Virus record (IMG/VR): IMGVR_UViG_3300014836_000320
Location: 1 to 64,000 of that record
DNA: 64,000 bases
Reading direction: 5' to 3' (one strand)
Source: a virus
Lineage: Duplodnaviria > Caudoviricetes
The notes beneath the pieces are model-generated. The model saw only the letters and a program-made list of their open reading frames with translations, was not told the DNA's origin and searched no databases. Both the position numbers and the translations under genes were made by a program. Of this stretch, positions 11,660-62,108 are shown one piece after another; within the stretch, counting starts at the first letter, position 1, and each line of letters begins with the position of its first letter.

Positions 11660-12240
11660 CTAGGGCGATTTCATCGCCCTGAATTTCGCGATGCTTCGCA
11701 TCTGCTCATTCTTTTTTATCTTGTTTTAGATTGGATATTTACAGTTTCAAACTTTATTAACTGTAGATTGTTTTTTAACTTAAGATGATACTTGACGATG
11801 ATGGACTAGCCACACTTAGCCGTAAGCACGGCTAAGTTTTTTGATGTTTGTGTCATCTTGACGATGCCGTCTACACCACCTTGGATTAAGCAACTGTTTG
11901 ACAACAGCAAAGGCGGTCACGCTCTACCTTTTTACACTTGACTTATAACGCTAGAAACTGCAACCGAATCCAAGCAATTTGCAGTTCTATGTAGGTTGTA
12001 ATAGTTCACCAGAGCCTACTCATTTTGGCAATCATATACTGCGCCAATCTCTTCCATGCCTGAGATCGCGTCCTGTTAAGGATAGTGGCGACAAGTCCCC
12101 GCTACCGCGTCGGGAGTTCCTTCCCCTGTGCAACCCAAGTGCCAGGTTTTATGGGTGTCAATTAACCGGCTGACACAAGCCTATCGGTAGTTATTCAAGC
12201 CTAAGCAGAGGTGCCGTCGTTAAAACATGCTTTAAAGCGA
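11660..12240 (-). ncRNA. Putative large structured ncRNA (size and ornateness like the ROOL/GOLLD class; family unconfirmed)
   Basis: No credible ORF; about 10 hairpins (e.g. 11814-11837, 11894-11907, 11909-11932, 11952-11989, 11991-12019, 12071-12082, 12155-12176); TAAATA late motif at 12247-12252. Confidence 0.7.
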
Positions 12241-27062: not shown

Positions 27063-30000
27063 ATGCAGAAAGATCCAAAACAATTTACAGGACAAGTTCC
27101 AGAAAATAACACTTACCCTGGCCAGCGTAAAGAAGGGCGTGTTGCACCATTGGCCATTGATTTGTTGCCATTGGTATTTAGAACAGATACAAACAAGAAA
27201 ATCTTTGGCGCCGCACTGGAAGACATGTTCCAGCCTTCGTCTATTGAAAACGTAAACTATGCAGTTGGTCAGCCATCTGGTAATGCTGGCATATCACAGG
27301 AATTCTTGCCAAGGAAAAATAGCCGCAGACAATTTGAAACTGGTCTTCTAGTCCAAGATTCAACCGGCACACGAGTTTTAACAGCCGATGACATTGCATT
27401 GAGCCAAGGCTTTTCTGATCAGCATCTCAATGAAAAACAAGTTCCAGTCAGTGTGTTAGATTTGCCAATCAATCCTGACAAGTTTGTCAATTGGAGCAAC
27501 TACTATTGGCTTGAAGAAGGAATGCCAACACTTTATATTGTTGGAACTTCATTGGAAGATGGCGGTGTTATCAGCATTGTCAACGACATCATTGGCAAAA
27601 AGAACTACACAATACCAACTCAAACCAATGGTCGAAGTGTTGAATTAAAAAATGGAATGCGTGTTGTATTCCAGAAAACTTACCCTAATAGAAACAACAT
27701 TGACGGCAACACATCTGAGCAACATGTTGCTGACGGGTCAAATCAACTGGACTTCCAGCATGAAATGACTCAACAATACAATAAGAGCAAGATTTCCATA
27801 TATGTAGACGGAGTATTAAAAACAGTCAACACTGATTATGCCTACACACTTGGCAGCATTATCTGGAGAGAAGGTAGTATTCCAGCCGCTGGTGCAGTGG
27901 TAGACATTGATCTACCAGACTACTGGGTCACTGAAGAAACTATACCACCAGAGCAACCAAAAATGGATCGCCGTTGGCAAGTGGAAGGCGTAGGCAGTCC
28001 CAGCGGCATTAGATTGCTTCCAAGATCACATCAAACAACAACCACAGTTTACAGTTCAACCATTCAGAGTCTATGGGATCAAACAACTATTCCTTGGGAT
28101 AGAATTGAATGGGACGGTGACATTCCTGGCATTAACAAAAAACATTATGTGCTACAGAACACAGGCGCCAGCAATCGATCAGCGTTCAGCCGTGTCAACG
28201 TTTGGATCCATAGAGATACAATCTTAACGGTTTGTAACTACCTCAACATAAAAACTGAAGAACTCATTGACGACCGTAAACGTGCATTGAGGCCAATTTT
28301 AGAGTTTGATCACAGACTTGAGTTGTTCAATCACGGCACAAAATTTAGACATTGGGTTGACGCTGTGGTTGACAGTAGATTTTCAATCATTCCTGTGAAT
28401 CCAGGATCTATTGGTCCATTTACATTGATTGGTCAACCATTGACCAAACTATTAGTTTATACATGCTTCAATGCAATTAGCAGTCAGTCTAATGCTATAA
28501 CTGCGCGAGCAGTATTGGATAAACTGGCCCTGGCACTAGACAACAACGATGACGAAGCATTAAACGAATTTGCCTTGGGTTTTGAAGCCAACGATAGAAC
28601 ACTGGTCATTGAAACATTGTTGAATATCAAAACAATTTTGAGAAATGTTCGCCAAGGAAAACTTTCAAATGTTCAGCGACGTGTGCTGTGGATCATTGAA
28701 GGTGCTTGGCAAAACAAGATCATTACTTTTAAAACCAACGACGACAACATTGTAGTGGGCTTTGAAGTTGAATCAGCCAATGACGGTGATGCCACTGTGG
28801 TGTTGCCAGGCAGCGGATTTGAATCAATGATGGAATATCAATGGATCAACGGTCAAGTTGTTCCAGCACAGACTCGATTGACACCTGTTCAGAAGCCTTT
28901 GTATAACATATACACTCGAGACCAACTGTCAATGACAGAGTGGTATCAAGTAAATGGAGTTAAGCCTACCAAGTTAAACTCAACAATTATTGAGTTTCTG
29001 GAAGAAGATGATCCCATTGACACCGAATCTGGCTACAAACTTTCGTTCTTGGCCAGCAAATTTAAGTCATTGGATCCTAATACTCCAGCGGCCAATCCCA
29101 TGTATGATATTCAATTTAAACATACGTTGCAGGATAAAATTTACTATCTAACTTCTGCTGTCACAGACAAAGAAATTCCTGGCCCTTATAGTTTTAGACG
29201 ATTGCAATCTGTGATCACCGAACAAGAGCAATCAGTCAATGAAGGATTGAGTTTTGGATATAGACGTGCGTGGTTTAGGCTACGCAGTTGGGTAATCAAT
29301 ACTCACAGCCTCGACAAGCACATTGTGGGATCAGTATCTCGCATTGCCATTGATGCTCATGCGTGGCCTACCTATGAATGGAATATTTGTTATGAAAATA
29401 ACATGCCAATGGTTTGCCACAGTGACAACCTTGAATACGCAGTTGAAAATTTAGTTGTGGCAGGCCGCGGCGAGAACCTAAAACTCAATACCATTGGTGT
29501 TAACACCATTGACATTTTTAACAAGAATACGCAGACAAATGTAATGTCTGGAAGCACCAACGGCCATGGTCAAATAACAGTATTCATTCCTGCTGACATT
29601 GAAGCAGGTTTTTATGAACTACACTTCAATGGTGAAACAAAAGTCAACCTATTGATAATTGATCCTGCGGCTGATCCTAGAGCACCAGCAATCAAAGTCA
29701 ATGGTATTGATGACACCAACTACAGTTTTATTGTTGGCAGAGGAATTGACAATTACGCAACTAACTTGACAATTGAATTTAACAGCATCAGCGGTATCGC
29801 TGAAATCAAGCACCAAGGCGAGTTTACCAGCAAATCAGATCATGCCACTGCTATTCCAGGGATTGAACTCAATCCCCTACAGATAGTAGAACTTGGCACG
29901 TTCACACCCAGTCGTTTGGTCAAAGGCATGCAAAGAACAATTAAAGCCAATGACATTCAAGAAAACTTAATTTGGACGTTGAGTCCACAGATTCCTGCAC

Positions 30001-33000
30001 TGGATGGAGCATTGATGGCTGACACATCTGCCATCAGAAGCACTTGGTTAAAAGAAAGAGTTAATCCCACTTTAACAGAAGCCTTGGCCAGTAGAAGCAT
30101 GACCAGTTGGCGCTGGTTTAGAAAATTTATTTCGCTGTTGGATCGCTACAACAAAATGTATGATCTAGACAATGAATTGCCGCGGCTGACCCTTGATCGA
30201 ATGTTAGAAGAAATGAACACAGGTATCAATTATAGTGTGCCTGATGCAGTTTCTGGTATGGCGTTTAACACCAATGACATGAACATGGCGTCATACATTG
30301 CCAATGGTCAAACAAGTTTTGCTATCAACACCGGTAGCCAAGAGTTTTACAGGGGAGTATATGGTCCTGATCACGTTTATGTGTATGTCAACAATATCTT
30401 ACAGCACACCGGCTATGCCATCGTTGGCCAAAATGTAGTGTTTGATGTTGCGCTGGCAACAGATGATCAGGTTTCAATTTACCACAGTGGAGAAGAATTC
30501 ATATATGCTGGCATTCCTGCCAGCCCAGCAAAATTGGGCCTAGGTGGAGTGTTTAAACCGCAGTTGATTAGAGAAACCTGGGGAAATTACGATCGTGTCT
30601 TGATTCAATGTCACGATGGCAGTAAAATTGTTGCCTTTCAAGAAAACTGGTTCAGCAACGGCGATCCCAGAGATGCTGTTATCCTGGAACTAGAAAGAAG
30701 AATTTATGCTGGATGTGTCAACAGAATAGGTGATCCAACACGCCAACGTTTGTCAACATACATCTATGGTCAAGAAGCCAGTGCTGATCGAGCCTTGGCA
30801 GAACTACAATGGTTTTTTGCAAACAACATTGATTACAAAGAACGCACTGACTTTATCAACGACAATCCATGGACATGGAACTACAGCGGTAAGAGTTGGC
30901 GTCGACTTTATCTTGATGAGTTTGGCACAGTCCAGCCTCACAGTCATCCTTGGGAGATCCTGGGCTTTGATGAAAAACCTGTTTGGTGGGACACACACTA
31001 TTCTTGGACAGATCCTGTAAAACGTGCCAACTTAGAAATGGCTCTCATGGGAGGAAAAATCTCTGAGCCAGGTCAGCCTGTCACTTACGATTTCCGTGTG
31101 CGTAGACTTTCAGCACTGGGCTATCCTGTGGGAAGCCTAGGGCAACTGTTAAACCCTGTTGAGTGGGGCTTGCCTTCGCCCAGCGTTGATCAAGCACGTC
31201 AACCGTGGGACATTGGCAGTTATGGTCCTGCTGAGGATGTATGGCTAAGAACTGGCGCCGGCATGTGGGCCGCTTGCATTGACAAAGCCAGCGATCTCAA
31301 GACTGCCAGCGAATTTGTTGAAACTGGCATCAATCCTTTTATCAAACCAAATATCAATAACTCACCCAAGGTTTTAGGTGATACATCATTGGCACCCAGC
31401 AATTTTGTGCAGGCGAGACCAACCATTGGTATTGGTGCAGTATTGTTTGAAACCAATCGAGAACTGAATTTGTTAGGCGAATCTCCGCTACTGGAAATGT
31501 CACTGATTCAGCCAGTGCTACAGTTTAGCGTGGGTGGATTTACAGATTCCACTGTGCGGTTTAGAATGTATCACACAAGATACCAGTCTGGCAATTATGT
31601 GCCAGAAGAAGACTTTGGCCTAACCCTAGACAGCGGTGTTGCTGAACACCAGGTTCGATATAGTGCAGTTCGTGTTGAAAAAGACGGCACAGGATTCAGA
31701 GTTTATGGTTTTGATCCCGAATACCGATATTTTGAAATCCTAGAACCCATTAAAGAAAACCCCAGCGGTGGTATCACTGGCTCATACCAGAATGTGTTTT
31801 CAACACCCACAGGTGATTACGTTGACTACAGTCAATGGAAACCCAATGCAGTCAAGGTTCCTTATGGTTCATTGATCAACAGCAAACAAGACTTGTTTGA
31901 CTTTTTTGCAGGCATGAACGAACTACAATCACAACGAGGATTGATTTTTGATCAACTCAATGATCGTGGAACTGTCAACAACTGGAAACAAGCGGCCATT
32001 GATGCCCTATCTTGGATTGACGAAAACTGGAGTGAAGAACACTTTTGCGTTGTTGAACCAGCCACTGCTGCCGGCGGATTCAAGTTTCATCACGCAGAAG
32101 GCCAACTTGATCAACTCAATTCAGACTTGCTCAAACGCGGAAAAATTCTTTTTGCCACAGGCAAAATTGCACAAGGCTCAGATCTGTTGACCACAAGAGA
32201 TTATGAAGAAAACACAGATTTGATTCAATCTCTCAATGATGAACAAGTTATTTTTGCGGATCTAAAAATCCGCAAATATGATCATGTATTTTTCTTCAAC
32301 TCTAAAACAAGATTCAATGATCTCATTATAGATCATGTCACTGGACAGCGATTGGATTATATTGGCATTGTTGGACGTAGAACTCGTGGATGGGACGGGC
32401 GTTATCAAGCCAATGGTGTATTGCCTACATTTACTGGTCTGCTACCAGGATTTGATGCACTGATCAATGACATCGTTGAAACTCGCAGACCTGAGAAATC
32501 ACAATTTGACAACTTCCTAGGCAGACTGTCTAAATCAAACGTTGTGCCAGTAAAAACCACTGTGCTCAGTGAAGTTATTCCTGATGCGGGTGTTGAATTT
32601 TTATTCAGACAGGGTCTACAAAGTGCTTCAGGCACCAACTTGGCCATCACAGCATTTTTCCGAAATGCCAATATTGATATTCCTGGCCGTAGCCAAGACA
32701 TCAACGTCAACGAACAATGGCTGTTTGCCAGCGGAGAGTTTGGCAGACTAGGCAACAGAAAAATCTGGGAAATTGAACTCAGAAAAGAAGATTTGATCAA
32801 CGACCGTCAAGTGATTAGATTCCTTGAAGGAAGAACAGATGTTGACCTACGCAGTGACAACATCATTGATATTATTGGCCCTAGAGACCCTCGCTGGATC
32901 AATCGTGATAGTTTTGATATACGTTTTGAAAAAGTAGCCCGTGCTGACATAGAGCAACAAAAACTTGCCACTATACAAAAGTGGTTGCCCAGTGCCGGTG

Positions 33001-36000
33001 TTGCCAACATTGATCAAACTGATCTCAAGGCCAGAGATTTAAATCAACTGTCCAATGGACTGGCGTTGGACAATGAAAAAGTTCAACATCTACTGTCAAT
33101 TCTAAGTTTCAGCAAGTTCAGAAACTATGAGCCAGAAGATCTTGTTTGGAACGATGGCGCTCTTTACAAGTGTGTGACAAAAGTCCAAGGCGGAGAAAAT
33201 ACCGCTTGGGATCCTGATCAGTGGACAATCTACAATGTAGAAGCAACATTGTTGCCTCCAAACATTTGGGTCAGCGATTACAATTTCAAAAACCCGTTCT
33301 CAGAAACAACTCCTCCTGGAGATGCTGACGTTGTAGGCTGGAACGTGCTACAGTTGGTAGGTCCCACTTATGTTGAAGAATGCTGTCCAAATGCTATTCA
33401 GACAGGGTTAAATGAAAGCAAAGTTACTTTTGGTAGCCCGCATCGTTTGACCACAGGAGATGTATTCCTAATGGTAGGAGCCAATGACGGCAACTACGAC
33501 AAGTTCCACACAGTCAAAGATCGTGTTGATGACTACAACGTATTGATTGAAGGTCGTAGCACCAGCAATACACCTATTTTTAACCTAGTGGTATTCAAAC
33601 TAACTTCAATGAAGTTTGGTTCTGTTGAAAGTCTACAGGCACAGTTAAATGGCGTTGAGGGTCTTAAAGAAGGCATGAAAGCCTTTGTAGAACCTGACGG
33701 AAGTCCCGACGGCGAATACATTGTTTACAAGTATACCAATCAAGGTAGCGTGTTCTCATGGCAACGTGACGAAACCTATACCACTGTTGCTGCCGCAATG
33801 GTCAATACACAAACCATTGAAAGTGTAACATTGTTGGATTCTGCCAATGAAAATATGTTGGCCACAGTTGAAGTATTTGATCCTTACAAGGGTCTTACCA
33901 TTGACGAGGTGGCAAGATTCATTGACTACAGAGACGGTGTTGATCCTGCAATCTACAACACAGATGACCTGGGTTTACCTGATCCAGATGCTGTCAACGT
34001 ATGGAACAATCAACACTTGGGTAGAATTTGGTGGGATACCAGTCGTGTTCGTTACTTTGAATACGAACAAGGCGACATCAATTATCGTGCCCGTAATTGG
34101 GGACAACAGTTTGACGGCAGTGAAGTGATAGTATATGAGTGGGTTCGTTCTGAACAATTGCCCACAACAGATGATGAACCAATGGCAAGACAAGACACCA
34201 GCAGTGGTGTTGGTGTTGTCAGATACAATGCCATTGAAGAAATTGAAACCACTGGTGCCACTCGCATATATTATTACTACTGGAAAAAGAATGTTTCTGA
34301 GTTGCCGGCCAACAGCAGTAGACGCTACAGCGCCATTCAAATACAAACAGTATTAGACAATCCAGACGTTGCTGGTGTGACCTGGATGAGCCCCATTGAC
34401 AGTAATGCGCTGATTATTTCAAATATTAGACAATACCTTACTACGCGAAACAGCGTGATATTACGCATTGAACAAAAAGACACACCAGAACAACAGCACG
34501 AAACAGGCATTTTGGTCAGCGAAGGCTTTACTGGTGACGTTGTTCCTGAGTATCTGTTCCGTAGACTTCGTGTAAGCCTGACAGGCCGAGACAATTTTAG
34601 AAAGTCATACCCGCTCAACACATGGCGTGAGAACACCGCCTATGAAGTTGGTGCTTATGTAATCAAGCAAGACTTCCCAGCAGAAGTTTCTGTGTATGAC
34701 AGTTACAGCACACTGGAGTTGGCCATCAATGGCAATTACGGTGGCAGAGATATTCCCATTATTCAAGTGTTTGATGATGGTAGAGAAGAAGTCAAGAATG
34801 TGTTGCGTCCAAAGTTAACCGGAGATGATTTATCTCCCATTGATGAAAAACTGCATCGTGTGTTTTATGTGGCCAACAGAACAGTTAATCCTGCCAATGA
34901 CATAGAGTCTCTTTGGAGAGTAGTGGCCAACGTTAATGGCGATCGCTTGGTTGTTGACTTGTATTCAGAAAACGAAGAAACAGCCAAACTACAAGTGTTG
35001 ACCGACAACCCAACAGCATCAATTGTTGAGGTCAACGGACTTTACATTTCTTCCACAGACTTTAGGCAAGACTACGTTGATGAAAAAATTGTGGTAAGTG
35101 CCACTAGTGCAATTATTCGAGGAGTTTTGGAAAGCAACGAATATCGTGCTGTGATCAATGCCAGCCGTCGTGTGCCAGATCCAAGGCTACATCCTCTACG
35201 TCGCTACGGCAACAACTACACAGTCATTCCACAAACATGGTTCAAGCACATTCGTGAGTCTCGCAGAAACTTTGTGAGAAGTGCCAATGCATACCTGCTA
35301 AAGATCAATGCAGTTGGCAAAGATCATTGGAATGCACACTTACTGACTTATAAACCTTTGTTTGGTCCATATATCAAGGACCTAACACCATACTGGAGAT
35401 ATGTTGATTATCTGGCCAATGGCTATCAGTATAACACAGAACAGTTTGTTATCAGCGATATTTCAGAAATGTCAGTTGATGGCATTTATGGCGTTGCAGA
35501 CAGTCGTGGTGTCATTGACAAGTCCTTTGTCAAAACAGGCAATGACATTGCCTTGGTATATCAACGCAACGGCACCATTCAATTCAATGATGCAATCTGG
35601 GATGGTAGCCTAGGCGACGCTTGGGACATGGCTCGTTGGGATCAGTATGCCTGGGACGAAGACAACAGCGAAGTGGTAAGAAGTCTAATCACCGCATTGC
35701 GTGAAGACCTTTTTGTGGAAGATGATCTGGGCTACTTTAATCTATTCTTCTTTGACATGGTCAAAGAAAGCCTGAGACAAATCCCCAACGCAAATTGGGT
35801 GTCAAAAACCACCTATTTGAACATCAGTCAAGTGTCAACCAATGATCTAACACCTGTGGGTGTTTACTTTGATCGCAGAGATGTGTTTGTTAAAAACTAC
35901 ATCAACGAAGTTAAACCTTACCACAGCAAGATTGTTGACATCAACCAAAGTCTAAGTAGCAACGAAAACATCACAGTCAACATTGAAGAAACGCTGGTAT

Positions 36001-36056
36001 TGTCCATTGAAGAAAATGGCACAACAACTGCTCAAACCCTGGCCGAAGGCGGCTGA
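27063..36056 (+). CDS. Giant virion structural protein (2997 aa), probable gp7-like baseplate wedge
   Basis: Follows gp6; INPDKFVNWSNYYW near N-terminus and YINEVKPYHSKI near C-terminus. Confidence 0.65.
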   Translation: MQKDPKQFTGQVPENNTYPGQRKEGRVAPLAIDLLPLVFRTDTNKKIFGAALEDMFQPSSIENVNYAVGQPSGNAGISQEFLPRKNSRRQFETGLLVQDSTGTRVLTADDIALSQGFSDQHLNEKQVPVSVLDLPINPDKFVNWSNYYWLEEGMPTLYIVGTSLEDGGVISIVNDIIGKKNYTIPTQTNGRSVELKNGMRVVFQKTYPNRNNIDGNTSEQHVADGSNQLDFQHEMTQQYNKSKISIYVDGVLKTVNTDYAYTLGSIIWREGSIPAAGAVVDIDLPDYWVTEETIPPEQPKMDRRWQVEGVGSPSGIRLLPRSHQTTTTVYSSTIQSLWDQTTIPWDRIEWDGDIPGINKKHYVLQNTGASNRSAFSRVNVWIHRDTILTVCNYLNIKTEELIDDRKRALRPILEFDHRLELFNHGTKFRHWVDAVVDSRFSIIPVNPGSIGPFTLIGQPLTKLLVYTCFNAISSQSNAITARAVLDKLALALDNNDDEALNEFALGFEANDRTLVIETLLNIKTILRNVRQGKLSNVQRRVLWIIEGAWQNKIITFKTNDDNIVVGFEVESANDGDATVVLPGSGFESMMEYQWINGQVVPAQTRLTPVQKPLYNIYTRDQLSMTEWYQVNGVKPTKLNSTIIEFLEEDDPIDTESGYKLSFLASKFKSLDPNTPAANPMYDIQFKHTLQDKIYYLTSAVTDKEIPGPYSFRRLQSVITEQEQSVNEGLSFGYRRAWFRLRSWVINTHSLDKHIVGSVSRIAIDAHAWPTYEWNICYENNMPMVCHSDNLEYAVENLVVAGRGENLKLNTIGVNTIDIFNKNTQTNVMSGSTNGHGQITVFIPADIEAGFYELHFNGETKVNLLIIDPAADPRAPAIKVNGIDDTNYSFIVGRGIDNYATNLTIEFNSISGIAEIKHQGEFTSKSDHATAIPGIELNPLQIVELGTFTPSRLVKGMQRTIKANDIQENLIWTLSPQIPALDGALMADTSAIRSTWLKERVNPTLTEALASRSMTSWRWFRKFISLLDRYNKMYDLDNELPRLTLDRMLEEMNTGINYSVPDAVSGMAFNTNDMNMASYIANGQTSFAINTGSQEFYRGVYGPDHVYVYVNNILQHTGYAIVGQNVVFDVALATDDQVSIYHSGEEFIYAGIPASPAKLGLGGVFKPQLIRETWGNYDRVLIQCHDGSKIVAFQENWFSNGDPRDAVILELERRIYAGCVNRIGDPTRQRLSTYIYGQEASADRALAELQWFFANNIDYKERTDFINDNPWTWNYSGKSWRRLYLDEFGTVQPHSHPWEILGFDEKPVWWDTHYSWTDPVKRANLEMALMGGKISEPGQPVTYDFRVRRLSALGYPVGSLGQLLNPVEWGLPSPSVDQARQPWDIGSYGPAEDVWLRTGAGMWAACIDKASDLKTASEFVETGINPFIKPNINNSPKVLGDTSLAPSNFVQARPTIGIGAVLFETNRELNLLGESPLLEMSLIQPVLQFSVGGFTDSTVRFRMYHTRYQSGNYVPEEDFGLTLDSGVAEHQVRYSAVRVEKDGTGFRVYGFDPEYRYFEILEPIKENPSGGITGSYQNVFSTPTGDYVDYSQWKPNAVKVPYGSLINSKQDLFDFFAGMNELQSQRGLIFDQLNDRGTVNNWKQAAIDALSWIDENWSEEHFCVVEPATAAGGFKFHHAEGQLDQLNSDLLKRGKILFATGKIAQGSDLLTTRDYEENTDLIQSLNDEQVIFADLKIRKYDHVFFFNSKTRFNDLIIDHVTGQRLDYIGIVGRRTRGWDGRYQANGVLPTFTGLLPGFDALINDIVETRRPEKSQFDNFLGRLSKSNVVPVKTTVLSEVIPDAGVEFLFRQGLQSASGTNLAITAFFRNANIDIPGRSQDINVNEQWLFASGEFGRLGNRKIWEIELRKEDLINDRQVIRFLEGRTDVDLRSDNIIDIIGPRDPRWINRDSFDIRFEKVARADIEQQKLATIQKWLPSAGVANIDQTDLKARDLNQLSNGLALDNEKVQHLLSILSFSKFRNYEPEDLVWNDGALYKCVTKVQGGENTAWDPDQWTIYNVEATLLPPNIWVSDYNFKNPFSETTPPGDADVVGWNVLQLVGPTYVEECCPNAIQTGLNESKVTFGSPHRLTTGDVFLMVGANDGNYDKFHTVKDRVDDYNVLIEGRSTSNTPIFNLVVFKLTSMKFGSVESLQAQLNGVEGLKEGMKAFVEPDGSPDGEYIVYKYTNQGSVFSWQRDETYTTVAAAMVNTQTIESVTLLDSANENMLATVEVFDPYKGLTIDEVARFIDYRDGVDPAIYNTDDLGLPDPDAVNVWNNQHLGRIWWDTSRVRYFEYEQGDINYRARNWGQQFDGSEVIVYEWVRSEQLPTTDDEPMARQDTSSGVGVVRYNAIEEIETTGATRIYYYYWKKNVSELPANSSRRYSAIQIQTVLDNPDVAGVTWMSPIDSNALIISNIRQYLTTRNSVILRIEQKDTPEQQHETGILVSEGFTGDVVPEYLFRRLRVSLTGRDNFRKSYPLNTWRENTAYEVGAYVIKQDFPAEVSVYDSYSTLELAINGNYGGRDIPIIQVFDDGREEVKNVLRPKLTGDDLSPIDEKLHRVFYVANRTVNPANDIESLWRVVANVNGDRLVVDLYSENEETAKLQVLTDNPTASIVEVNGLYISSTDFRQDYVDEKIVVSATSAIIRGVLESNEYRAVINASRRVPDPRLHPLRRYGNNYTVIPQTWFKHIRESRRNFVRSANAYLLKINAVGKDHWNAHLLTYKPLFGPYIKDLTPYWRYVDYLANGYQYNTEQFVISDISEMSVDGIYGVADSRGVIDKSFVKTGNDIALVYQRNGTIQFNDAIWDGSLGDAWDMARWDQYAWDEDNSEVVRSLITALREDLFVEDDLGYFNLFFFDMVKESLRQIPNANWVSKTTYLNISQVSTNDLTPVGVYFDRRDVFVKNYINEVKPYHSKIVDINQSLSSNENITVNIEETLVLSIEENGTTTAQTLAEGG

Positions 36057-58579: not shown

Positions 58580-59045
58580 CTACCAAGTTACTCCAAACCC
58601 ATCCTGTAATGGATTCGTCATCTGGTGATCCTTTTTGTATTATTTTTATATGGTGCCACCCGTCTCGTGTTTCAAGTATCTCAACTGTAGATCCTTCATA
58701 CAGCACAGACATGATTGGGTAACCCATTCCTGGACCAGTGCGTAGATTTGAATCTACAGAAATTTTACCAACTGCGGTATACTCGCGTTCTGTGGGGTTA
58801 ACCATCGATTCAATTTGTGCTGGTGTTGGTGTTGTTGCCATCGTCACAGATTTGACAACTTTTAATTCAATGGGCTCAACATCTTTCTTGACAGGAAGAG
58901 GTCTATGATTCTGGCAAGTGCTGATTCCGGGTTTATAAAACCAAACACAATTGTAAAAAAAGGAACCAACGTGGATGGAAGTCAGTAGCACAAATGCAAA
59001 TGTCAAACAGGTGACAAAAAAAGGACTGTGCCCAAAACTAAGCAT
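58575..59045 (-). CDS. Membrane-anchored bacterial SH3 (SH3b) domain protein
   Basis: N-terminal hydrophobic helix; SNLRTGPGMGYPIM..GWHHIK..TGWVWSNLV; TGATG coupling. Confidence 0.8.
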   Translation of the reverse strand: MLSFGHSPFFVTCLTFAFVLLTSIHVGSFFYNCVWFYKPGISTCQNHRPLPVKKDVEPIELKVVKSVTMATTPTPAQIESMVNPTEREYTAVGKISVDSNLRTGPGMGYPIMSVLYEGSTVEILETRDGWHHIKIIQKGSPDDESITGWVWSNLVE

Positions 59046-59212
59046 CAATGTGCAACCATTTTTGGTAGATAAGGAACGGAACGAACTCCGTGTAGTTGTT
59101 GCAGGAGTTCACGAGCCTGCTGGGCAGATTCGGCCATGACTCTGACTGTTTTTTCTTCTCCACCTGGTCCAGGTTGTCGGACTGTGGTTTCAAACATTTT
59201 TAAGTTTTTCAT
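59045..59212 (-). CDS. 55-aa hypothetical protein (below the ORF-track cutoff)
   Basis: MKNLKMFETTVRQPGPGGEEKTVRVMAESAQQARELLQQLHG...; TGA overlaps the SH3 gene ATG. Confidence 0.65.
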   Translation of the reverse strand: MKNLKMFETTVRQPGPGGEEKTVRVMAESAQQARELLQQLHGVRSVPYLPKMVAH

Positions 59213-59235
59213 TCTAGTATCATAATAAAGTGCTC

Positions 59236-59405
59236 TGCGAACCCCGGTGGTAATTATACCGCATCAAGCGCCAGGAACCCCCAACACCATCACGCACGGC
59301 CTCCACCCACTCCCCGACGGGTTCCGTTAACGCATTGCCAGCGGCCTTTCGGTTCAAAGACTACCACCCGTGGCTATCACACCACTTCTCATCCTGCGGG
59401 TCACA
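59236..59405 (-). ncRNA. Candidate ~170-nt structured RNA, family unknown
   Basis: 60% GC over 59241-59400 (counted); nested helices 59236-59245/59398-59405, 59246-59252/59362-59368, 59259-59262/59341-59344, 59274-59280/59319-59325; cc-GAAA-gg loop. Confidence 0.6.
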
Positions 59406-59443
59406 GTATCTGCTGATTAGGCAGAACGTTCATTGCCAACTAG

Positions 59444-60649
59444 TTACCTACGATTGGCAGGCACATAATTGGCAGTAATGCCAAACGGTGCAGTGATATC
59501 TCTGCTACCATGCACAACAAACAAGGTATCGCAGTAGTCTGGATCACCCCAACTACCACAAGGATAGCCGTCTGTGAACATCACCAACTGGTGCGGATGG
59601 ACTTCATTGTCCTTCATCCACTGCCATACACATTCAAATGCAGTTCCACCACCGCCTTGAATAGGATATTCGCTCATGTCGCGGCCATCATCGCTGGTGA
59701 ATTCGTCTTCGTTGTAGACGCTGGTATCAAAGGTAATGATACGAACCTTGTAAGACGTAAACTGATCCAGCGAGCCTTGCACCATGCCCAAGAAGTCTGA
59801 CAGCATGTCCTCGCCAATGGATCCAGAAGCGTCTAATGCAACCACAATGTCAAGTTCCTCGCCAGGCAGTTGACCGGGCAAGACTGCACCAGTGTGCCAG
59901 GCCTTACGATTAGGACGCATCCAGGTGTAGTCGCTTTTGAGCGAACCACTGAACTGAATACGAAGCAGATCCTTCAAGTCCATTACAGGTGCAGTAATGT
60001 CTTTGACCAAACGCTGGATATCGCCTGGCACATTGCCGGCACCTGCATTCTTTGCGGCCTGAAGCACAGCCTCACGCCATTCGTCACGCAAGGCCTTCTT
60101 TTCTTCTTCAGTCAACGGCTTCATCTTAGGACGGCCCTTGCCATCCTTGCTGTCAGTGCCGTCGCCGTCACCTTCATCTTCACCGTCCCCATCAGGGTCC
60201 ATGTGCATGTCCAAGGTCATCTTAATTTCTACAGCATTGGCCATGAGTTCGTCATAGACTTCGTCTGCGGTCTTGCCAGTGTATTTAGAGTCCAACAAGA
60301 TTGGCACCGCTTGAATAGCACGGCCAATACCTTCACGGACCAACATGCCGTTGATCACATAGTCGCCAGCCATGTTCCAGACCTGCGGATTACGATCACC
60401 GCGGCGTGACATGTGATCAAAAATAATGTGGCCAAGTTCGTGGCCAAAGCCAAAAATTAGTTCTTGCTCGTCAAGTTTTTGGATGAAGTCGGAATTGTAA
60501 TAAAAAGACCTGCCGTCGGTGGCCAATGTAGGACACCAATCGCATTCTTCTAGTTTGAGTCGGGCGGCCAAAGGACCCCAGAAAGGATACTTCAGTAGCA
60601 TAGCGACACGAGTCTTAATCAACTTATCGCGGGCGGACATCTTTGACAT
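59444..60649 (-). CDS. VWA-domain protein with N-terminal putative metallopeptidase domain (DUF2201-like)
   Basis: HELGH, MIDAS DASGS, GGGT, TDG; start trimmed to ATG 60649 with AGGAG SD. Confidence 0.9.
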   Translation of the reverse strand: MSKMSARDKLIKTRVAMLLKYPFWGPLAARLKLEECDWCPTLATDGRSFYYNSDFIQKLDEQELIFGFGHELGHIIFDHMSRRGDRNPQVWNMAGDYVINGMLVREGIGRAIQAVPILLDSKYTGKTADEVYDELMANAVEIKMTLDMHMDPDGDGEDEGDGDGTDSKDGKGRPKMKPLTEEEKKALRDEWREAVLQAAKNAGAGNVPGDIQRLVKDITAPVMDLKDLLRIQFSGSLKSDYTWMRPNRKAWHTGAVLPGQLPGEELDIVVALDASGSIGEDMLSDFLGMVQGSLDQFTSYKVRIITFDTSVYNEDEFTSDDGRDMSEYPIQGGGGTAFECVWQWMKDNEVHPHQLVMFTDGYPCGSWGDPDYCDTLFVVHGSRDITAPFGITANYVPANRR

Positions 60650-60680
60650 GGTGGCTCCTATGTTTTCAGCGTATGTATCT

Positions 60681-60709
60681 ATTATAGTGCAATTTTGGAT
60701 TAAGGTCAA
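60681..60709 (-). promoter_or_regulatory. Sigma70-type early promoter
   Basis: TTGACC-N17-TATAAT. Confidence 0.85.
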
Positions 60710-60714
60710 CCATT

Positions 60715-61002
60715 TTATTTTGGCCCACACAAGTCCCAAAGCATGGCAACTTGTGGGTCTCTGAACCAAATGGTTTTGCGTGGCACATAGTCCCAATCCA
60801 ATCTTTTTAGGCCTTGATTTCTGGCCCACTCGGTAACTTCACGGATCGCTTGGCTCTGCCATGGGCGGGCAGACCAGCCCTTCCTTTGTTCGCGGAGCCA
60901 CTCGCTGACATCGGATGGTGTTGGAGGCCGGTCTGCCCACTGACTGTGAACGTCTGGCCCATACAATTGCTCTACTATGGGCCATGGGCGTTCTCTATGC
61001 AT
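60715..61002 (-). CDS. Trp-rich hypothetical protein between the AAA and VWA genes
   Basis: 95-aa ORF filling the gap on the coding strand. Confidence 0.6.
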   Translation of the reverse strand: MHRERPWPIVEQLYGPDVHSQWADRPPTPSDVSEWLREQRKGWSARPWQSQAIREVTEWARNQGLKRLDWDYVPRKTIWFRDPQVAMLWDLCGPK

Positions 61003-61004
61003 AC

Positions 61005-62108
61005 TTACTCATCTGTAAGCAGGTTGGCATACCGCTTGAAGAAATCAGGGAAGTTCTTCATCTTCTTGCGGTCAAATACCACCTTGTAATTCTTGAGCAC
61101 GGTGTGAGCACCCATGATAACCATCTCGGGTTCAAAGTTCGCCATCATAAAGCCCAGCCAGTTATCGGCACTTTCATTGAACGTGTCAATCTTGCCAGAA
61201 CGTTTGGCGTCTTCGTAGCGGCTACGAAGTTCGTAGCACAGGCTAGTGACCAGAGCGTAGCCTGCGGACACTTCCTTGGCACGGAACTCCTTGACCTTAC
61301 CATTGAGCACATCTGACGGGTCGGGCAAGTCTGCGGCATGCTTACGATGGGCCATAAACTTAATTGCCATACCTTCACCTACCAGACCAGCCACCATATC
61401 GGTGTTGGAAGAGTCAGGCAGGTTGTCATCCAGCATGTCAGACACGAAACTCCAGGTGCGCGGAGTAGCAAAGGCGCGGTCGTGTTGCACCGGATCAAAA
61501 TTGTAGAGGTCGCCCTTGAACTGCTTCAGGAAACCCACCACATGCGGATGGATCTCATGGCCAAGAGCCCAGTGCTCCCAGTCTTCAAAGTCCACACGGA
61601 TTTCCAAGTGCATGAAGCGGTTAGCCAGTGGGCTAGGCATACGATAGGTAACACCCTTATCGCCCATACGGTTACCTGCGGCAATGATCACTACATTGTT
61701 GGGCAGAGTATACTGGCCTACTTTGCGGTTGAGCACCAACTGATAGGCCGCGGCCTGAACAGCCGGCGGAGCAGAGTTCAACTCGTCCAAGAACAGGAAC
61801 ACAATGTCGTGTTCTTGTGCAAATTCTTTGCTGGGCAATTCTGAAGGGGTAGCCCACTTCATGGTATTGTCGCCTTGACTGTAGTAAGGCACACCTTTAA
61901 TGTCTGTGGGATCCATAAGGGCCATACGCAAGTCAATTACAGTAGAGTTAGGAAACTCACTGGCAACCTGGTTCACCATGTCGGACTTGCCAACACCGGG
62001 AGGACCCCAAACAAATACCGGGCGGCGTTTTGCAACGGCACGGCGAAGAATAGGTTTGCACTCGCTAATCTTAACGGTGCGGGTTTCAACTTGACTACGA
62101 TTTCCCAT
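61005..62108 (-). CDS. MoxR-like AAA+ ATPase
   Basis: WGPPGVGKS, LFLDELN, AAGNR, PLANRF, TPRTW. Confidence 0.92.
   Translation of the reverse strand: MGNRSQVETRTVKISECKPILRRAVAKRRPVFVWGPPGVGKSDMVNQVASEFPNSTVIDLRMALMDPTDIKGVPYYSQGDNTMKWATPSELPSKEFAQEHDIVFLFLDELNSAPPAVQAAAYQLVLNRKVGQYTLPNNVVIIAAGNRMGDKGVTYRMPSPLANRFMHLEIRVDFEDWEHWALGHEIHPHVVGFLKQFKGDLYNFDPVQHDRAFATPRTWSFVSDMLDDNLPDSSNTDMVAGLVGEGMAIKFMAHRKHAADLPDPSDVLNGKVKEFRAKEVSAGYALVTSLCYELRSRYEDAKRSGKIDTFNESADNWLGFMMANFEPEMVIMGAHTVLKNYKVVFDRKKMKNFPDFFKRYANLLTDE

Follow-up and report, generated by a model that had tools for sequence, protein, structure and literature searches.

A single-copy structured RNA family of freshwater jumbo phages, encoded mostly within tRNA arrays

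Introduction

A freshwater phage contig encodes a compact structured RNA that is conserved, as a single copy, in a family of jumbo phages, where its gene mostly lies within an array of tRNA genes and on their strand. The window in which it was recognized is a stretch of 64,000 nt (positions 1 to 64,000 of the IMG/VR record IMGVR_UViG_3300014836_000320), and all positions given below, unless a locus is named, are those of this stretch. We hold with moderate confidence that the element is a single-copy gene for a stable, compact non-coding RNA of ~205 nt, which would be cut from a polycistronic transcript and act in trans. Here, we present the family, its fold and its genomic surroundings, and weigh other readings of the same element where the evidence touches them.

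The element and its neighbours

The R1 covariance model, built from 41 sequences with the window's own among them, matches the minus strand at 59225-59434 (cmsearch, 225.8 bits, E 2.4e-71, model positions 1-215). Within this match of ~210 nt, the likely RNA body of ~205 nt spans about 59227-59430. The first-pass annotation, made from the letters of the window alone, had placed a structured RNA on the same strand at 59236-59425; strand and site were right, and the limits fall short of the covariance-model match. It had also pointed out that the region is richer in G+C than its flanks, which holds (0.587 at 59250-59399, versus 0.40 at 58950-59099 and 0.47 at 59400-59549). The 86-kb IMG/VR contig containing the window has a CheckV completeness of 26%, and we infer that its source is a jumbo phage of roughly 330 kb. 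The R1 search finds only one copy of the element in this contig, ARAGORN predicts no tRNA or tmRNA gene in the window, and tRNAs are absent from the whole 86 kb around this copy.

The element sits between two minus-strand genes. Upstream lies a DUF2201 metallopeptidase/vWA gene (59444-60829; Pfam PF13203, 7.1e-37, and PF09967, 1.4e-17), itself preceded by a gene for a MoxR-like AAA ATPase (61005-62108, minus strand). These MoxR and DUF2201/vWA genes (59444-62108), with a small overlapping ORF between them, occur together as a conserved pair in 44 related viral contigs. Downstream of the RNA, also on the minus strand, come a 55-aa ORF (59045-59212) and then an SH3 gene. The 55-aa protein has the conserved core ...ETTVR...EA..L.EQ.HGPR.VPYIP, belongs to no Pfam family, and its conserved start is probably the second ATG (MFETT...). 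Elsewhere in the window, the plus strand carries a very large ORF of 2997 aa (27063-36056), preceded by one of 1047 aa and followed by one of 1139 aa.

A family found in phages

An 18-mer of the element is present in 68 IMG/VR viral contigs, and a second, independent structural pattern, based on a different part of the RNA, was found in more than 119. Altogether, at least 170 IMG/VR phage loci carry exactly one full R1 match each, with scores of 96-228 bits, a range also covered by the relatives that were not part of the seed. One copy is present in each of five genomes with lengths of 320-353 kb and a completeness of 92-100%, and the carriers are freshwater jumbo phages of about 320-350 kb. 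No similar sequence was found by blastn of the element against 50,697 GenBank phage records at 1e-5, where relaxing the threshold to E<=10 returned only chance matches of 24-33 nt inside protein genes. Scanning 185,579 cellular species genomes with a pattern produced two matches, both due to chance (one of 12 bits, the other without a model match).

The site behind the vWA gene is the less common one. Among the 44 viral loci encoding a relative of the vWA protein, the RNA occurs at the same place only in L002 (96% identical) and L007 (79%), and an R1 search of 29 whole vWA-bearing records, which are fragments with a completeness of 5-38%, yielded nothing further. Two of these loci, L003 (2975-3077) and L004 (4486-4588), have at this site a 103-nt, internally deleted remnant of the RNA, which retains H1, GGGUGGU, H3 and H4 of the fold described below, and has lost Hx, H2 and the entire 3' arm. 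RNA copies at the vWA site can thus decay.

The family is new to the catalogues. At the gathering threshold, cmscan of the whole window against Rfam 15 detects only Polynucleobacter-1, away from the element, and at E<=10 positions 58900-59700 return just three chance-level matches. The same search on ten loci of the family reports tRNA, tmRNA and Polynucleobacter-1 only, none of them overlapping the element. This agrees with the earlier statement, made from the sequence by eye, that the region could not be matched to tRNA, tmRNA, 6S, SRP, RNase P or hammerhead motifs. A description of an RNA of this kind was not found in the literature searched; a catalogue of 10,006 viral candidate RNAs (PMC10690425) may contain this family.

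The Polynucleobacter-1 RNA (RF01718) of the window is full length (12037-12181, minus strand; 90 bits versus a gathering score of 37), and another copy lies near the tRNA array of L150 (9381-9527). Like the present RNA, it is a structured orphan that these phages carry, but it represents a distinct, already catalogued family of 141 nt with a different fold. Its presence in jumbo phages bears on the true origin of that orphan family.

A fold maintained by covariation

Taken alone, the sequence of the element folds no better than chance (z = -0.91, with 39 of 200 shuffles folding equally well), so the helices drawn in the first-pass annotation could be judged only by comparison with relatives. 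In an alignment of 99 distinct sequences, 47 base pairs are kept at 96.8%, and 38 of them vary on both sides. Such values of pairing and covariation were not attained in any of 500 shuffles, and when the partners are slid by 1-3 columns, 32-45% remain paired. Together with the lack of an Rfam match, this strong covariation among homologs bears out the original proposal of a structured RNA of an unrecognized family. Regarding the sampling, the first search pattern fixed the 18-mer, and the second fixed GGGUGGU, the ACC of H3 and parts of H4; a base is termed invariant here only if it is also kept in a sequence set whose search left that base free.

The variation follows base pairing rather than codon position, which leaves a negligible probability to the element being a short protein-coding region, on either strand, instead of an RNA gene. 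What speaks for coding is that the C-rich antisense strand is often free of stops, with one antisense frame fully open in 20 of the 99 members, and that ORFs of 45 aa and 47 aa run across the element in the window. However, most members have stops in every frame, no frame being fully open in more than those 20 members, in line with the earlier remark that the region has no ORF. Moreover, the lengths fall into all three mod 3 classes (55/39/35), and the element abuts tRNAs on its sense strand. That an antisense frame is often open simply follows from the G-richness of the sense strand.

The overall shape consists of five hairpins in the 5' half and a 3' half formed by one long, bent arm, all on the minus strand. 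The first hairpin, H1 (59409-59425), has the stem UCUGC/GCAGA and a 7-nt loop, CUAAUCA; all five of its pairs change on both sides, with 99.6% of the alignment cells paired. After an invariant UA comes the small hairpin Hx (59394-59406; 59394-59408 including the UA), with the stem CUGUG/CGCAG and an invariant ACC triloop at 59399-59401, kept in 99 of 99 sequences, including those from the pattern that left this ACC free. Three of the five Hx pairs change on both sides (e.g., GUGUG/CACAC and GUCAG/CUGAC). A joining strand, GAUGAGAAG (59385-59393), follows, whose GA and GAA parts are nearly invariant by column counts, and leads to H2 (59371-59384), with the stem UGGU/GCCA, the loop GUGAUA and changes on both sides at four of four pairs. 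H2 is the gtgg/ccac side hairpin that had been proposed from the sequence alone and that covariation confirms.

The loops of H1 and H2 make a loop-loop (kissing) contact, seen by covariation, between AUCA (59414-59417) and UGAU (59376-59379). Its three pairs all covary (G-C 55 / A-U 26; U-A 76 / C-G 9; C-G 62 / U-G 14 / G-C 9), and the complementarity of the two loops amounts to 3.76, compared with 3.27 +/- 0.12 when partners are shuffled, a value as high as the observed one being reached in 0 of 2000 shuffles. Other members pair their loops as GUC/GAC or AACG/CGUU, and in one subfamily the two sides are swapped (UGAU/AUUA).

Loops that stay complementary as their letters change, even to the point of being swapped, could also pair between molecules, in which case the RNA would be a unit of a larger assembly, made of RNA only or of RNA and protein, like the rings of phi29 pRNA or the cages of GOLLD and ROOL. 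GOLLD and ROOL, several hundred nucleotides long and three to four times larger than this RNA, share with it a phage origin and a tRNA neighbourhood, with no likeness in size, sequence or Rfam family. According to PMC12286853, they are elaborately folded phage and prophage RNAs, often located beside tRNA genes, that form homo-oligomers and whose function it gives as not known. Similarly, the pRNA of phi29 is a phage RNA with a three-way junction and two loops kept complementary by covariation, but it belongs to another type of phage, in which its loops pair between molecules on the packaging motor. However, the similar lengths of H1 and H2 and their shared origin at one three-way junction are well suited to an intramolecular contact, and the Rfam models for GOLLD, ROOL and phi29 pRNA do not match the element. 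We thus consider an assembly of this kind distinctly unlikely, and return to a single folded molecule.

Between H2 and H3 runs the single-stranded GGGUGGU (59363-59369), invariant in the 43 sequences from the pattern that left it free. H3 (59344-59361) has the stem GUCUU/AAGGC, four of whose five pairs change on both sides, and an 8-nt loop, UGAACCGA, containing the second invariant ACC. A cc-GAAA-gg tetraloop had been read here in the first pass; its letters are in reality part of this loop and stem, and the tetraloop has to be abandoned. GGGUGGU may pair with the two ACC loops; all three elements are invariant. The base preceding GGGUGGU covaries with the base preceding the ACC of H3 (C.A 66, A-U 25, U-A 7). 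The last hairpin of the 5' half, H4 (59331-59343), has a short stem, CGC/GCG, with C-G 83 / U-A 16 at the third pair, and a 7-nt loop, UGGCAAU, whose last base pairs with A59327, four positions after the hairpin (U-A 89 / C-G 9 / G-C 1).

The long 3' arm (59235-59326) is likewise defined by covariation. It starts with H5 (59319-59326 with 59235-59244), in which eight of eight pairs change on both sides, and continues with H5b (59315-59316 with 59245-59246) and H6 (59307-59310 with 59247-59250), where one pair does so (C-G / U-A / A-U). A conserved 6x7 internal loop, GUGGAG opposite AUAAUUA, separates H6 from H7 (59295-59300 with 59258-59263), all six pairs of which change on both sides. The arm ends in a kink-turn-like motif and a variable tip hairpin, H8 (59264-59294). 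H5, H5b, H6, H7 and H8 correspond to the nested long-range helices of the earlier helix set, so that of this set both the nested helices and the side hairpin stand, and the tetraloop falls. The tail after the arm (59227-59234) consists of AGCA, with A200, G201 and C202 conserved at 98-99%, and then U-rich bases.

A kink-turn consists of a regular stem, a 3-nt bulge and then tandem G.A/A.G pairs. In the window, the kink-turn-like motif has a 3-nt bulge, CGU, followed by GA.U opposite UGA; its sequence pattern, GCCGUG-CGU-GAU opposite UGA-UGCGGU (59288-59300 with 59258-59266), is present in 49 of the 99 members, the window included. The others have a plain helix, a short GNRA-capped hairpin or a longer insert instead, and the kink-turn, judging from its sequence pattern, is thus a peripheral device, replaced in about half of the members. 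In a divergent subfamily (L131, L152, L158 and L167), an insert of 70-93 nt takes the place of the kink-turn arm. In L131, L152 and L167, this insert contains a GAUGGGUGGAUGG-like motif (GAUGGGCGGAUGG in L131) and a AACCAACC motif, both missing from L158, and its letters look as if the GGGUGG/ACC motif pair had been recreated at a new place.

Three other pairings were tried and rejected. The energy-minimum fold has an outer pairing of GGUGGUA with UACCACC, and the variable base of UACCNCC covaries instead with the other G-rich strand. A long-range pairing between GUUCUGC and GCAGGAU finds no support from relatives. As to a closing helix (P1) that would bring the 5' AACGU together with the 3' AGCA, U9-G201 is the one pair that can form consistently, and 13 of the 99 members break G8-C202.

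Genomic context: tRNA arrays and a second site

Even though the copy in the window has no tRNA beside it, most members of the family do. Of 151 distinct members, 124 (82%) have three or more tRNAs within 3 kb; these tRNAs number 1546, every one of them on the strand of the RNA. The gene often abuts a tRNA at one end or at both: the end of an upstream tRNA is within 15 nt in 81 members, and in 74 of the 151 the first bases of the model overlap or abut its CCA end (offsets -3 to 0). The start of a downstream tRNA lies within 15 nt in 52 members, 29 of them flush, and the next tRNA in an array often begins 0-6 nt past the end of the model. The species of the neighbouring tRNAs vary among members.

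These arrays hold some other features of their own. In three of the related phages, they include a permuted (two-piece) tmRNA of the beta-proteobacterial type (L167, 5891-6267; L150, 10790-11187; L090, 13045-13489), which suggests that the host is a beta-proteobacterium, for instance Polynucleobacter or a neighbour of it. In the array of L048 (9189-9270), ARAGORN reports a tRNA whose anticodon has four bases (caag), perhaps a frameshift-suppressor-like tRNA or else a miscall. An unusually long tRNA-Ile(tat), of about 92 nt, is found in several arrays.

The window copy and a few relatives are found behind the MoxR/vWA operon and not in a tRNA array. Two genomes show the two placements: in G037 the array holds the single copy and the vWA gene has none after it; in the window-like G035 the single copy follows the vWA gene, with the tRNA array 128 kb away. 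Judging from these placements, the RNA gene has moved between two sites and has remained single-copy.

This mobility bears on the third role suggested in the first pass, a leader controlling the downstream 55-aa and SH3 genes, which we now think extremely unlikely, whether as a cis-acting leader or riboswitch for these genes or as a stabilizing 3' UTR of the vWA operon. It is true that the first ATG of the 55-aa ORF lies 13 nt downstream of the RNA on the same strand, that the RNA has neither promoter nor terminator of its own, and that a homologue of the 55-aa gene also directly follows the RNA in L082 and L095. However, the RNA stands between tRNAs in most members, and in L007, where the flanks differ from those of the window and the element is kept, a radical-SAM-like ORF is found downstream instead. 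With the gene being mobile and its downstream neighbour different in L007, a leader is therefore not supported. Homologues of the 55-aa protein occur in the tRNA-array regions of 24 related loci, on the tRNA strand, at distances from the RNA ranging from 14 nt to 9.7 kb, and are detected in 2 of the 5 complete genomes. With distance and presence this variable, the 55-aa protein was also rejected as a fixed partner of the RNA.

Transcription and release

On the minus strand, the element has no promoter-like or terminator-like site beside it. It is covered by RNA-library contigs from four studies of river and other freshwater, these being assembled contigs with possible DNA carry-over. In three of these contigs the vWA gene and the element are joined (59377-60027, 59381-60142 and 59359-59942), which fits read-through from the vWA operon, assembled contigs showing neither transcript ends nor levels. 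Positions 59183-59236 are uncovered and the contigs of three studies end at 59237, a boundary that we do not take as an end of the RNA. Similarly, word depth is 16-31 for short contigs over the element and 3.5-6.5 for long contigs over the vWA gene, values that cannot rank the parts of the gene.

According to the mechanism that we propose, the RNA would be made within a longer transcript, which in most relatives would be the polycistron of a tRNA array. There, the RNA would be released by the same cuts that release its tRNA neighbours: on its 3' side, the RNase P cut at the 5' end of the next tRNA and, on its 5' side, the 3'-end trimming of the preceding tRNA. In the phage of the window, the gene, having moved behind the MoxR/vWA operon, would be transcribed by read-through and released by some nucleases, since no tRNA flanks it and punctuation by tRNAs is thus not applicable. 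Once released, the RNA would owe its activity in trans to its fold, whether it binds a partner or works as a catalyst, and would not serve to switch an adjacent gene on or off.

The closest counterparts in position are the species 1 and 2 RNAs of T4 (rnaC and rnaD). These are likewise small, stable phage RNAs that, in the T4 annotation, are encoded in a tRNA cluster, co-oriented and flush with tRNAs, and presumably are released by tRNA processing. The analogy is one of position only: with 119 and 139 nt they are shorter than this RNA, and R1 gives at most 6 bits over the T4 tRNA region with filters off. Furthermore, the co-oriented location in a tRNA cluster is shared by 124 of the 151 members of the family, the window copy having no tRNAs in its 86-kb contig.

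HDV-like theta ribozymes located behind phage tRNAs free the 3' ends of these tRNAs, and one may ask whether this RNA is also a ribozyme, either one whose self-cleavage defines its termini and releases the 3' end of the tRNA before it, or one acting on tRNAs in trans. By column counts, many unpaired bases are invariant within a compact multi-helix fold, the start lies within about 3 nt of an upstream tRNA CCA end in nearly half of the members, and the invariant GGGUGGU contains UGGU, complementary to the ACCA-3' end of tRNAs. Against this, no match to the element was obtained with the Rfam models of the hammerhead, HDV-like, twister, pistol and hatchet ribozymes, even at E<=10, and there is no tRNA directly upstream in about half of the members, the window included. 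The joining strand GAUGAGAAG does resemble fused pieces of the hammerhead core, but without a stem II between them. A ribozyme is, in our opinion, improbable, and we retain the processing of a polycistronic transcript by other activities as the likelier source of the ends.

Possible partners and the T-box analogy

Action in trans remains the best fit among the three roles that the first-pass annotation had listed (trans-acting RNA, ribozyme or leader), considering that the gene is single-copy in differing surroundings, mostly tRNA arrays; this part of the proposal stands, with the action itself inferred from these features. Our best guess for the partner, based on the context and on the UGGU/ACC motifs, is the tRNA/translation apparatus. 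The array may, however, only supply expression and processing, so that its tRNAs do not imply a tRNA-related function. Regarding proteins that could bind such an RNA, neither an L7Ae-type kink-turn binder nor Ro60 nor RtcB is encoded in the five near-complete genomes.

Both the T-box bulge and the L15 loop of RNase P read the ACCA-3' end of tRNAs. By analogy, this RNA might be a tRNA partner made by the phage, with GGGUGGU reading the ACCA-3' end and the kissing-loop junction acting as a docking platform, which we rate as unlikely. If this were true, it would represent a natural tRNA-binding sensor, a chaperone or a tRNA-processing ribozyme brought along with the tRNA sets of jumbo phages.

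T-box RNAs have a conserved strand containing GGGUGG, whose UGGN pairs with the NCCA end of the tRNA, and they contain a kink-turn. The present RNA shares the GGGUGG strand and, as an optional part, the kink-turn, and a sensor following the T-box principle can be imagined, which would bind uncharged tRNA via UGGU and tune the read-through of the array by switching between two folds. GGGUGGU resembles the T-box core GGGUGGNACC, the two G-rich strands GGGUGGU and GNGGGUGGA could compete for UACCNCC, with the energy-minimum fold using the alternative pairing, and a U-rich tail follows the RNA. Such a sensor is nevertheless very unlikely. The T-box model of Rfam (RF00230) has no match to the element at E<=10, the alternative pairing lacks covariation support, the kink-turn is in the wrong arm and absent in half of the members, and no competing terminator hairpin was found on the minus strand. 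Contrary to T-boxes, moreover, this RNA has no specifier-loop or antiterminator architecture and does not lie upstream of an aminoacyl-tRNA synthetase or amino-acid gene, its neighbours being tRNAs or the vWA, 55-aa and radical-SAM-like genes.

Implications for jumbo phage biology

The single-copy RNA acting in trans that we favour would be the counterpart of the smaller and less well-defined species 1 and 2 RNAs of T4, which, to our knowledge, have been without an established function for some fifty years. With the revised secondary structure, the loop-loop contact and the invariant unpaired bases, probing, mutagenesis and structure determination have direct starting points. Giant phages bring dozens of tRNAs and a tmRNA to reshape the translation of their host, and this RNA is a further one encoded in the same clusters. 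Because it is single-copy without exception, highly conserved, intricately folded and kept by at least 170 uncultured phages, and absent from the cellular genomes and phage records searched, it points to an undescribed RNA-based function in phage infection.
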